Origin: a virus | Lineage: Duplodnaviria > Heunggongvirae > Uroviricota > Caudoviricetes | DNA length: 33,816 nucleotides | Virus record (IMG/VR): IMGVR_UViG_2850761752_000005 | Strand: one strand, 5' to 3' | In this document: one piece after another, positions 24,670 through 29,146 of the stretch | How positions within the stretch are numbered: the first letter of the stretch is position 1 | How the letters are laid out: every line of letters starts with the position of its first letter | Translations under genes and position numbers: made by a program | Notes under the pieces: model-generated | Told to the model about the DNA's origin: nothing | The model's database searches: none | The model's input: the letters and a program-made list of their open reading frames with translations, nothing else

Positions 24670-27084
24670 TTAATACAGGTTCCGCCACTGATCATCTTCC
24701 TGCAAACGCTGGTTCCGATAGAAGATACGCAGGCCTGCTCCTGACGGAATACTGCCTCCGCGAAGGAGTAAATCGACCTCTTTCTCGCTGCCATCAAATC
24801 CTCTGGACTTCAGCTCATACACGAGCTGCAGTCGCTGATGGTCTGTAATTCGCTGTTTGTAGTCTTTACGCCGTTTCGGTTTCACCAGGCGTAACCTTGC
24901 TGCCAGTTCCCGGCGCTCTTTTTTGCTCATACTGTGCAGGTAATCGTGCAACTCCTTGTCATCCATGCTGGTAATGTCCGTTCTGGGGTTCCCATCAGCT
25001 GATTTATCTTTCTCCTGTTGGTTCAAATTTTCAGCAAGGAGACAGTTATTGCCACGAGTCCAAGGGGCGCAAGCGCCCTGGTCGGCTGCCGCCTCCTGAA
25101 CGTCAACGGCTTTACGAACCATTTTCCACTTCACTGCATGAGTGCAGATCTTGCCTTCTGCAATGGGTGACCAGATGCCATAAATACGAATACCGTGATC
25201 GCCATAGGCGGTCGGCTCTTCATTGATTTCATAAGCGGTTCTGATCAAGTGATATTTGCGAGGAACCAGCACGCCGCCCTGCCTCATAATGTAGGTGGCA
25301 AAACAGCCAGCATCAGCAGCAGCCAGGATGGCATCAAGGCGCGGGTTATCCAGTACCGGCGCACCTGCTTTTTTGTCACCCTGCTGCCTTGCCGCCTGAC
25401 CAGCCAACAACCGCAGTTCACGGTAAGCCTGACGCCCTGGAATACCAAAGAAGCGGAATTGCTGAACACGATGCAGAGACGCCCAGGGATTAACGTATTC
25501 AGCGTTATCACGCAGGGATTTACCCGTTTCCTTGCTGATCTCGCCAGCCAGACCACGCCCGTCAATGTTCTTACTGATGTATTTCGCGATGTAGCTTGTC
25601 GGCGTTCCTTTGCGCGGGTTTATCAGCTCAGATTTAAAGCGTGGACCAGTGTTATTACCCAGTTCCTCGCGGTCTTCACGGATGGCAAACTTACGCAACA
25701 ATGCAGTAATGGCGCGGCGGTCTTTTTTGCGCATAAAACACAACAGGTGCCAGTGAACTGTACCGTCATGATGCGGCTCAGCCACCCGCACGCCATACCA
25801 GCGCAACCCGGCTTTGTGCATCGCCTTACGAAATGCAGCAAACATGCCGACCAGATAATCGCTGCTTTGTCTTACCGTCGCATTTGTCCAGGTTGGGTTT
25901 GGTCTGCCGTTATTGAGCGTGGAATGGAAACGTGACGGACAGGTAATGGTGTAGAAAACGGCGCAGTCACCGCGCATTTCCGCGATAAGCTCCAGACCTT
26001 TAACACAGGCCATCATCTCATTGCGGCGGTGCGCCGGGTTGCTGCTGCTGGCGTTTACCACGTCTTCCATATCCAGCGTGTCGCCCTCTTCGTTCACCAG
26101 TTCATGAGAACGGAAAAACTCCAATGACTTGCGGCGCTGCTCACGTTTATGCATCACGGCTTCATAGCTGACATAGGGAGATGCTTTTTTGCTGACCAGG
26201 CAGACAGCACGCAACTGCTCTTCCCGCCATTCGCAACGCATTTTCCATAATTTCCGGTACCACCAGTCGGCGCACAACATACGCGCCAGCGAACCCGGAA
26301 TGAGTTCATAGGGCACGGGTTTACGGCGGTTTCTTTTCCGACGGAGTTGCTCAAACGCAGGCGGGATGACATCCAGACGCAGGGTTTCCGCTGCCACCTT
26401 TTCCCATGTCTTGCGGATTTCTTCTGGCTTAACGTCATCGGTGGCATACAAATCACCACAAGCTGCATCAAGGCACATGCTCATATGCGCAGCGACAAGG
26501 GTAGACAGGCGTTTCACCTGATCCTGACTCATTTCAGGCAGAATCAGCAGGCCGTCCAGCCCTACATGGCTTGCCATAAAACGAAAAGATGCAGATAGCT
26601 GGCTGTCGCGTACATGCTCCAGTCGTTCCAGACATGGCTTAATCGTCTCACGTAAATAGCGGGAATAAGCCTTTGGCCTGCCCAGGCTGCTGAAGTATTC
26701 AATACGTTGCATCAGCGGCTTGCTGATATGGGAAGGCTGGGCGTTGACGTCCGCCAGAATGACCATATCCGGATTAAAACGCTGCTGCTCATGCGCCAGC
26801 TTTGCCCGGCTAATGAGCTTATCCTGCTCCATTTCGTGCTGGACAGGATCACGTGATTCATAAAAAAAATAACGCTCCCAGACCTGATCACTCAGTGCCT
26901 CGCGGCGCAACTGTTCCTGCTCGTTATCGGCAGCGTACAGAGTGATCAGGTTTGAAAGCGCAGAAACCGGCGCAACTTCCGCCGGGTCCAGATAAGGGTT
27001 AATGGCCTTTTTCGGGCTGTTCCATGAGAACGCTGCGGCAGCCTCGTTAAAGCCGCAGCAGTTGTTCATATCGGCATGGCTCAT
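24670..27084 (-). CDS. A: replication initiation protein gpA-like (rolling-circle initiator)
   Basis: 804-aa ORF (P2 A is 761 aa); ATG overlaps the dam' stop. Confidence 0.85.
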
Positions 27085-27720
27085 GCACGTACTCCGTACA
27101 CGGCAGAACTATCCACGCCACGCGAATAATCAAATCCCACCCAGCAGCGCGGCCCGGAAACAGCAATGATTTCTGTTGCTGATTTACCCTCGCCAGCTGC
27201 CACACCGATGCTGCGTTTTACCTTGATATAGTGGTGAGTAAAATTGCGATACAGCGAACGGATCAGGGATGTGTCACTGTTAGAAACAATGACCGGATGT
27301 CCTTCTGATGACCGATGTTCAAGAACGGATGCTAGGTGATACTGGTCATCTTCAGTGAAACCATCAGTGTGATAGCCGGAAAACGTACCGTCATACGGTG
27401 GATCGCAATACACCACATCCCCCGCCTTCAACATCGCCAGCGTTTCATCAAAGCTGGCGCAGATAAACGTTGCTCGCTGGGCTTTTTCTGCAAATGCGCG
27501 AATTTCTTTTTCAGGGAAATACGGATTTTTATAATTGCCGTAGGGAATGTTGAAATGCCCGCTCTTGTTATAGCGACATAAACCACGGTAACCGTGACGA
27601 TTGAGATACAGGAAATATACCGCTTTCATGAAATCAGTAATTTCAGTTGAGTAATTAAACTCCTGCCTTATGTTGTAATAAGCCACCTCCCTGTTTGCGA
27701 TCTCAAATAAAACTCTGGCG
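27081..27720 (-). pseudogene. Dam-like N6-adenine DNA methyltransferase, 5'-truncated by IS911
   Basis: DPPY motif and a strong match to recalled E. coli Dam from about residue 75 onward; frame is open right up to the IS911 end at 27721; the N-terminal AdoMet-binding region is missing. Confidence 0.75.
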
Positions 27721-27728
27721 TGAAGTGG

Positions 27729-28568
27729 TCAACAAAAACTGGCCACCGAGTTAGAGTTTTTCCAGTATCGATTTTCCGATTCGTTTGGGGGTAACCCACC
27801 GTTATATTCGTGCGGTCTTAGTGCGCTGTAATATCCAACGATATAGTCCGTTATGGCGTGAGCTGCCTCGCTGAAGCTTACGTAACCCACCACCGGCATC
27901 CATTCGTTCTTCAGACTCCTGAAGAAGCGTTCCATTGGGCTGTTATCCCAGCAGTTTCCGCGCCGGCTCATACTCTGTCTGATCTGGTATCGCCACAATA
28001 ACTGCCGGAACTGCCTGCTCGTATAATGACTGCCCTGATCGCTGTGGAACATCACCCCGCCGGGCTTACCACGGGTTTCCCATGCCATTTCCAGCGCTTT
28101 CATGGTGAGCCTGCTGTCCGGCGAGAACGACATGGCCCAGCCCACTGGTTTTCTTGCGAACAGGTCGAGAACAACGGCGAGGTACGCCCAGCGCTTACCC
28201 GTCCAGATACAGGTCACATCACCGCACCACACCTGATTTGGCTCGGTCACGGCGAACTGCCTTTCAAGGTAGTTAGGGATAGCAACATGTTCATGACCAC
28301 CACGTTTATACCGGTGAGTCGGCTGCTGACAGCTGACCAGCCCCAGCTCTTTCATGTGCCTGCCAGCAAGCCAGCGTCCCATCTGGTAGCCTCTCCGGGT
28401 TGCCATTGTGGCGATGCTTCTTGCTCCGGCCGAACCATGGCTGATGCCATGTAGCTCAAGTACCTGACTGCGTAATACAGCCCGTCTGCCGTCTGGTTTT
28501 TCAGGACGGTTTTTCCAGTATCTGTAGCTGCTGCGATGAACCCCGAACACTTGGCAGAGTGTGACCAC
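27729..28568 (-). CDS. IS911 OrfB (transposase catalytic part, expressed as OrfAB by -1 frameshift)
   Basis: 279-aa ORF with the DDE-region sequence of IS3-family transposases. Confidence 0.9.
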
Positions 28569-28594
28569 AGGATAATGCGCTCTGAGTTTCCCGA

Positions 28595-28897
28595 TTATCG
28601 AGAACAGTTCAGGGAGTCTGACATCAAGAGCGCGGTAGCCTTTTTTAATATTTCATTCTCCATTTCAATGCGTTGTAGCTTTTTCCTCAGCTTACGTATT
28701 TCGATTTGTTCTGGTGTTATCGGAGAGGCTTTTGGTGTTTTGCCCTGACGCTCATCACGCAGTTGTTTGACCCATCTTGTCATTGTGGAAAGGCCAACAT
28801 CCATAGCTTTGGCGGCATCTGCCACCGTGTATTTCTGGTCAACAACCAGTTGAGCGGATTCGCGTTTAAACTCTGCGCTAAAATTTCTTTTTTTCAT
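28595..28897 (-). CDS. IS911 OrfA (transposase N-terminal HTH protein)
   Basis: 100 aa from [13 protein letters not shown]..., matching recalled IS911 OrfA. Confidence 0.9.
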
Positions 28898-28969
28898 TGG
28901 AGCACCTGTGTTGTTCTGAGGTGAGCATATCACCTCTGTTCAGGTGGCCAAATTCAGTGTGCCACTTCA

Positions 28970-29146
28970 AAGCAGCCAGATTTCTGGTGCGGTTAATAAA
29001 TGAGGCTGAGCTGGGTTCAGCTTGTTCCGCAGAATCTGCACATTCATGCCTGCACGTTCTGCCAGTTGCACCAGATTGTGGCGCAGTGCAAATGCACGAC
29101 AGGCTTCATCAAAATGTGGATGTTTGGAAACTTGGTAATCAAACAT
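28970..29146 (-). pseudogene. cII: 186 CII-like protein, 3'-truncated by IS911
   Basis: [19 protein letters not shown]... resembles recalled 186 CII; the frame runs into the IS911 terminus and stops at the IS-encoded TGA. Confidence 0.6.

Follow-up and report, generated by a model that had tools for sequence, protein, structure and literature searches.

Organization of the locus

The stretch of DNA analysed here, referred to as the window, comprises the 33,816 nucleotides of IMG/VR virus record IMGVR_UViG_2850761752_000005. It holds a cryptic 186/P2-like (Peduoviridae) prophage from a Shigella boydii-cluster chromosome. Within its early region, a full-length copy of the insertion sequence (IS) IS911, here called copy 1, separates the remains of two phage genes. 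On one side lies a Dam methyltransferase gene (dam) that has lost its 5' part, and on the other a cII gene that has lost its 3' part. This arrangement very probably reflects an IS911-linked loss of about 1.8 kb of the early operon, by the action of transposase or by recombination between IS copies, in a decaying prophage. The features at the junction, in which IRL and IRR denote the left and right terminal inverted repeats of the element, are:

27081..27720, minus strand: 5'-truncated dam gene (D12-class N6-adenine methyltransferase), codons 74-285 kept; from alignment to intact Dam and PF02086
27718..27720: left flanking triplet GCG, adjoining IRR; read from the sequence
27721..28969, minus strand: IS911 copy 1, full length, 1,249 bp; from both exact ends and identity to RefSeq copies
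27729..28568, minus strand: IS911 orfB, with an rve integrase-core/DDE domain (Pfam rve, rve_3); from Pfam and translation
28595..28897, minus strand: IS911 orfA, 100 amino acids, HTH_Tnp_1; from the open reading frame list and Pfam
28640..28646, minus strand: A6G (A AAA AAG) programmed -1 frameshift motif leading from orfA to orfB; from motif and reconstruction
28970..28972: right flanking triplet AAG, adjoining IRL; read from the sequence
28970..29146, minus strand: 3'-truncated cII gene, codons 1-59 of 169 kept; from alignment and PF06892

The ends of copy 1 were located with the IS911 end sequences as queries. Both match at 24 of 24 positions, IRR at 27721..27744 on the plus strand (TGAAGTGGTCAACAAAAACTGGCC) and IRL at 28946..28969 on the minus strand (TGAAGTGGCACACTGAATTTGGCC), where shuffled sequence is expected to give 0 chance matches. 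From end to end, the element has 99.8% identity to copies that carry the RefSeq annotation 'IS3-like element IS911 family transposase', which confirms the name given to it in the first-pass annotation, an earlier reading made from the sequence alone. Copy 1 shares its ends, beginning with 5'-TG, its orfA/orfB organization, the A6G motif and the rve/DDE core with IS911 of the IS3 family (IS3 group), which was first described in Shigella dysenteriae. Because a -1 shift at A6G yields an uninterrupted 389-residue OrfAB ending at 27729, the element looks functional. Copy 1 differs from a simple IS911 insertion in lacking a 3-bp target duplication, since its flanks derive from sites 1.8 kb apart. 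This difference concerns the insertion event and not the element.

Two truncated genes

The left flank of copy 1 aligns with residues 74-285 of intact 285-residue phage Dam at 99% identity. The remnant spans positions 83-253 of the PF02086 profile, compared with 1-253 for the intact protein. It retains the DPPY catalytic motif, and the FAGS S-adenosylmethionine (AdoMet) motif, which is of the FxGxG type and is F32-A-G-S35 in the intact protein, disappeared with the first 73 codons. A complete D12-class Dam has both this motif I and DPPY within PF02086, and the remnant therefore falls short of one. Relative to the orphan Dam methylases of P2-like phages, to which it is otherwise so similar, it is missing profile positions 1-82, the N-terminal AdoMet-binding region. 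Because this region is gone, methyltransferase activity would not be expected, and the remnant is best regarded as a pseudogene that belongs to the family in no functional sense.

No stop interrupts the dam frame before the IS is reached; going upstream, the first one in frame is that of orfB at 27729..27731. This agrees with the first-pass description of a 5'-truncated Dam gene open to the end of the element. That description put the loss at about 75 N-terminal residues including the AdoMet motif; the loss of the motif is borne out, and the number is 73. Production of a complete Dam from an alternative start was considered and rejected, since the only in-frame starts, a GTG at 27686 and the ATG of 'MKAVY', are both downstream of the lost motif I. 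No in-frame start within 27687..27720 gives a complete methyltransferase domain, so the truncation stands. An OrfB-Dam fusion was likewise discarded, because the two coding regions share a frame but are separated by the orfB TAA.

As a side observation, OrfAB and Dam residues 74-285 are split only by this TAA and three junction codons (PLH). The shared frame is probably a coincidence, as it would arise with a one-in-three chance.

The right flank encodes residues 1-59 of a 169-residue 186-type CII protein with 100% identity, and covers positions 1-53 of the 146 in the PF06892 Phage_CP76 profile. The stop codon of this stump is the terminal TGA of IS911 (28967..28969). A full-length 186-type CII has about 169 residues and the whole PF06892 profile. 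The 3'-truncated cII-like gene reported at first pass is thus real, and the cut falls after codon 59. Because the stump represents one third of the protein, it would not be expected to activate the lysogeny-establishment promoter, and it is a predicted pseudogene.

A related observation comes from the phage protein family phrog_35458 (profile length 64), which collects 'CII-like regulators' of about 60 residues and matches only CII residues 1-59. Its existence suggests that phage and prophage records contain cII stumps cut at or near codon 59 in sufficient number to make up a cluster of their own.

Comparison with intact relatives

The best intact reference is a prophage between ybjL and rcdA in E. 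coli UPEC-245U/190328 (NZ_CP049845.1, locus L024), which is 99.8-99.9% identical to the window and is referred to below as the sister prophage. Window positions 12406..27720 correspond to L024 27185..42503, and 28970..30311 correspond to L024 44342..45683. The intervening 1,838 bp (L024 42504..44341; NZ_CP049845.1 4237014..4238851) are replaced by IS911 in the window. In the sister prophage, this segment contains:

dam codons 1-73
a TraR/DksA-like zinc-finger gene, 75 amino acids
a DUF2732 gene, 77 amino acids
a DUF5347 gene, 113 amino acids
fil, a cell-division inhibitor gene, 98 amino acids
cII codons 60-169

The same breakpoints recur against three further intact relatives. The gap is 1,588 bp relative to the prophage of E. 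coli 11899A (L003), 1,838 bp relative to phage vB_EcoM-813R9 (L001) and 1,587 bp relative to phage Cartapus (L002). The flanks of IS911 copy 1 are therefore collinear but non-adjacent in IS-free relatives, which is the hallmark of an IS-associated deletion. These alignments support the earlier proposal that the early region between cII and dam has been deleted.

The comparison also shows how closely the window prophage follows the 186 type. It shares gene order and orientation in the early region (cI / apl / cII / fil ... A) with Peduoviridae prophages of UPEC-245U and E. coli HS and with phages Cartapus and vB_EcoM-813R9, at 95-99.9% nucleotide identity, and it occupies the same integration site as E. 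coli prophages of this type. With cI, an apl/cox-like gene, cII (Phage_CP76) and fil as the components of this locus, the '186-like' label applied at first pass was fair. Unlike these relatives, the prophage in the window is short of 1.8 kb in the early operon and of 5.5 kb that hold tail and baseplate genes, and it carries four IS elements and several point lesions.

Flanking triplets and other IS elements

The triplets bordering copy 1, GCG and AAG, were confirmed to differ on re-inspection, so that there is no 3-bp direct repeat around the element, as had been claimed. Such a mismatch is expected 63 out of 64 times at unrelated sites and by itself is no evidence of a rearrangement. The evidence for deletion comes from intact relatives, in which 1.6-1.8 kb separate the two flanks. 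Both breakpoints are exact, with neither microhomology nor filler DNA on direct inspection. A BLAST alignment that ran 3 nt into the IS at the left breakpoint had raised the possibility of microhomology, but on direct viewing the bases are TGA versus CGA, a resemblance without significance.

Inversion of the DNA between copy 1 and the oppositely oriented copy 2 was also considered as the cause of the unequal triplets. It was rejected because cII', apl and cI (primes denote truncated genes) are still collinear with dam' and A, an arrangement shared with intact phages, and because copy 2 has its own TTG duplication in the source genome. An inversion of this kind does exist in another strain (L019, see below), where its appearance is different.

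The remaining IS elements of the window serve as internal controls. Those that carry a target duplication are:

30312..32392: IS1, a nested insertion between a ydcA-like gene and int; 9-bp duplication CTTTTGCTT at 30303..30311 and 32393..32401
31077..32386: IS629 inside the terminal inverted repeat of that IS1; 3-bp ATT duplication
33442..>33816, plus strand: IS911 copy 2, in the integrase gene, inverted relative to copy 1 and running off the window; identified by end match

The TTG duplication of copy 2 is present on both sides in six sister chromosomes (L014-L016, L021-L023) and in the source genome, where the 3' 59 codons of int and rcdA lie beyond the element. A further IS1, at 11638..12405, has no 9-bp target duplication and stands in place of 5,545 bp that the sister prophage has at L024 21640..27184. 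The DNA lost there includes part of a tail-fibre assembly gene, tail fibre H, gpI, gpJ, gpW, gpV and a DUF5677 gene. To judge from this alignment, the IS1 marks a second IS-linked deletion of the same kind as that at IS911 copy 1. Since the nested IS1, IS629 and copy 2 keep their duplications, and the IS1 at 11638 and IS911 copy 1 do not, the absence of a duplication in this prophage goes with missing DNA.

Distribution and later rearrangements

Exact-protein searches with the 201-residue Dam remnant and the 59-residue cII stump returned many assemblies. Positions 22967..33816 of the window are identical, at 100% and with no gaps, to CP026731.1, which has been cited as S. boydii ATCC 8700 (PMC9430107). 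At least 10 NCBI assemblies, from S. boydii and from S. flexneri serotype 6, have the GCG/AAG junction. These include S. boydii 602068 (CP049285; PMC7545283) and ATCC 9210 (CP011511; PMC6456863), as well as S. flexneri serotype 6 strains 64-5500 (CP026811) and FDAARGOS_714 (CP055124) (PMC9455713). The junction is also in the finished chromosome CP068090. Neither it nor an intermediate with one IS occurs in any of 5,426 complete E. coli genomes. A contig collection with one genome per species gave 0 exact matches to the left junction, which, given the makeup of that collection, carries little information. Because the junction is common to genomes of the Shigella cluster and is present in none of the 5,426 E. 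coli genomes, the deletion is old and has been inherited within the S. boydii / S. flexneri 6 cluster.

Some members of the cluster have undergone further rearrangement here. S. flexneri 6 strain 64-5500 (L019, CP026811.1) has the segment of about 4.5 kb that lies between its two IS911 copies (cII'-apl-cI-ydcA-IS1::IS629-int') in the opposite orientation to the other genomes, and at the IRR ends the dam' and int-3' flanks have traded places. Such an exchange is direct evidence that IS911 copies have recombined with each other at this locus. The NCTC-derived assembly GCA_900457095.1 has, beyond copy 2, a truncated parM gene that belongs to a second P2-like prophage, so that copy 2 is bordered there by TTG and AAC. 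More DNA is deleted in two other assemblies, and copy 2 has different far flanks in L018 and L020.

Possible origins of the deletion

From these comparisons we infer the following order of events. IS911 would have entered the early lytic operon (pR -> apl-cII-fil-...-dam-A), and about 1.8 kb beside it would then have been lost, either through transposase-driven adjacent deletion or through homologous recombination between two direct IS911 copies. The product would be a single IS911 whose flanks come from two target sites and therefore lack a 3-bp duplication. It would leave cII with 59 of its 169 residues, remove fil and the DUF5347, DUF2732 and TraR/DksA genes, render Dam unable to methylate and set gene A 1.25 kb of IS away from pR.

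Several points weigh against this account. An intermediate with IS911 at one site only would be recognized by GATCGGTAAG followed by IRR in an otherwise intact cII gene, or by IRL followed by GCGCGAGATATAAACG in an otherwise intact dam gene. No intermediate, whether with IS911 at one site and a duplication or with two copies bracketing the 1.8 kb, is seen among the contigs read or in the 5,426 complete E. coli genomes. The size of the gap varies with the reference, between 1,587 and 1,838 bp, because the fil region is variable. The absence of the deleted segment from other places, which itself speaks for a deletion, is shown for the window and for 20.6 kb of a sister genome (L004), the extent of that search. 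Finally, the predicted inactivity of the Dam remnant and of the CII stump is judged from their domain content.

IS copies that lack target duplications arise mainly by adjacent deletion and by IS-IS recombination (PMC11708052), and both are plausible here. A single IS911 inserted in cII or dam could have deleted adjacent DNA up to a new target 1.8 kb away, for example from an IS dimer with an IR-IR junction, and we give this sequence of events a little less than an even chance. It would account for a lone IS copy with two perfect ends and an intact OrfAB, and the IS1 at 11638 displays the same pattern. IS911 is known to form circles and tandem dimers with active IR-IR junctions (PMC9333248), and adjacent deletions by IS3-family elements are frequent in experimental evolution (PMC11708052). 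All 14 IS-plus-deletion events in three populations of the Long-Term Evolution Experiment (LTEE) involved the IS3-family element IS150 (PMC11708052). However, no single-insertion precursor is present among the genomes examined, and the scar is the same as that expected if IS911 had instead inserted twice in the same orientation. In that case, one copy would have entered dam with a GCG duplication and the other cII with an AAG duplication, and RecA-dependent recombination would have excised the 1.8 kb and one IS. This route is only slightly less probable. IS-IS recombination is a standard source of missing duplications (PMC11708052), and at the present locus the 64-5500 inversion and the altered copy 2 far flanks in the NCTC-derived assembly, L018 and L020 document recombination between IS911 copies. 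On the other hand, it requires two same-orientation insertions within 1.8 kb, and the two-copy intermediate is not seen among the contigs read. Transposition and IS911-IS911 recombination leave the same scar. The first-pass proposal that the IS mediated a deletion is consequently upheld in that the deletion lies at the IS, and the transposase route becomes one of at least two that give this result.

Other origins fit less well. IS911 could have been captured in one step at a pre-existing double-strand break or deletion, with no staggered target cleavage, so that a duplication was never made. Such a process has been proposed for IS5 and IS481 events with large rearrangements (PMC11708052), although it is a hypothesis even there. 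Nothing in the sequence favours it, microhomology and filler DNA being absent, and it is improbable here. There is also scarcely any chance that no deletion took place and that the junction is a natural mosaic or an artefact in which collapsed IS repeats joined non-adjacent contigs. IS repeats often break or misjoin short-read assemblies, and most short-read contigs with the Dam fragment end about 60 bp from that fragment. Yet the junction is present in the independently finished chromosomes CP026731, CP055124, CP049285, CP011511, CP068090 and CP026811, and both of its flanks are 99.8% identical to a single intact prophage at the same chromosomal site.

An IS911-linked deletion, by whichever of the two principal routes, would place this locus beside the deletions associated with IS150, IS1 and IS903 in the LTEE and elsewhere (PMC11708052). 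The likeness extends to the single IS copy, the lack of a duplication and the one-sided loss relative to an ancestor. In contrast to the LTEE cases, the ancestor of the window prophage is inferred from a 99.8% identical sister and is not known experimentally; nothing essential differs.

State of the prophage

Host genes grxA, ybjM and ybjL lie to the left of the prophage (window 1..2620), and the ybjL-rcdA site is common to intact relatives in E. coli UPEC-245U, 11899A and HS. Gene-by-gene tblastn comparison with the annotated sister prophage identified P2-type late genes, gpA and the cI/apl/cII switch, as expected of a 186/P2-like phage, and the closest phage records to the window are Peduoviridae. 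Three genes around the deletion are intact:

24670..27084, minus strand: replication endonuclease gene A, 804 amino acids; open reading frame, Pfam Phage_GPA
29179..29400, minus strand: apl/cox-like excisionase-repressor gene, 73 amino acids, the first gene of the early lytic operon; phrog_575 'Cox-like excisionase and repressor'
29526..30095, plus strand: cI repressor gene, 189 amino acids; Pfam Phage_CI_repr, phrog_4

The gene A product is 99.6% identical over 804 of 804 residues to gpA of the sister prophage, and its ATG overlaps the dam stop (ATGA). The cI and apl genes and the small ydcA-like gene are 100% identical to their counterparts there. It had been claimed that both the lysogeny-establishment and the early lytic circuits are broken. 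The first part is supported by the cut in cII. Loss of the lytic circuit is only partly established, because gene A is intact and lies downstream in the IS911 orientation. Only A is known to be needed for 186 replication. A hybrid outward promoter, formed from the TTGACC hexamer of IRR and flanking sequence, was considered and set aside, as the best -10 element found by eye (TATTTG, with 17-bp spacing) is weak. A consensus scan for minus-strand promoters at the IRR/flank junction found none.

Other genes carry damage of their own. The tape-measure gene (4744..7820; 1,025 amino acids in the sister) is split by a frameshift near 7293, and the portal gene (20139..21169; 343 amino acids) by one near 21040. 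The int gene (32581..33441) has a TGG-to-TAG change at 33203, a 1-bp deletion at 33270 and the copy 2 insertion at 33442. With at least five further lesions (the IS1-linked tail loss, the tape-measure, portal and int point changes, and copy 2), the prophage would be cryptic regardless of the deletion at IS911 copy 1.

Between the portal gene and dinI lies a two-gene cassette (21278..23791, minus strand) that encodes an AAA_15/AAA_21 ATPase and an HNH endonuclease. In PADLOC terms, the cassette corresponds to candidate defence system PDC-M01 (A and B), with a weaker match to Septu PtuA. The ATPase gene is frameshifted in the window, giving 451 amino acids plus a tail compared with 549 amino acids in the sister prophage and in several Shigella genomes.

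Implications

The phenomenon is already known. This is a textbook IS-associated deletion and part of ordinary prophage decay in Shigella, where IS911 is one of five IS types expanded in all species (PMC7373316). Its importance beyond annotation is small. Pseudogene is the appropriate label for the dam remnant and for the 59-codon cII stump, the prophage should be scored as cryptic, and Dam-type methylation should not be attributed to this locus.

It is unlikely that the loss of cII, fil and their neighbours was fixed by selection, such that the prophage was 'grounded' by domestication and did not simply decay by neutral processes. If it were, the deletion would have rid the prophage of a cell-division inhibitor and of a stretch of its early lytic operon, yet left it with an intact cI (immunity), apl and gpA and, at first, the PDC-M01/Septu-like defence cassette as well. 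In a variant of this idea, transcription out of IS911 may keep dam'-A expressed.

The GCG/AAG IS911 junction conveniently serves as a clonal marker of the S. boydii / S. flexneri serotype 6 cluster. The locus is a clean case of the rule by which a missing target duplication at an IS points to a rearrangement. It also illustrates how IS911 copies, once resident, drive later inversions and flank exchanges between strains.

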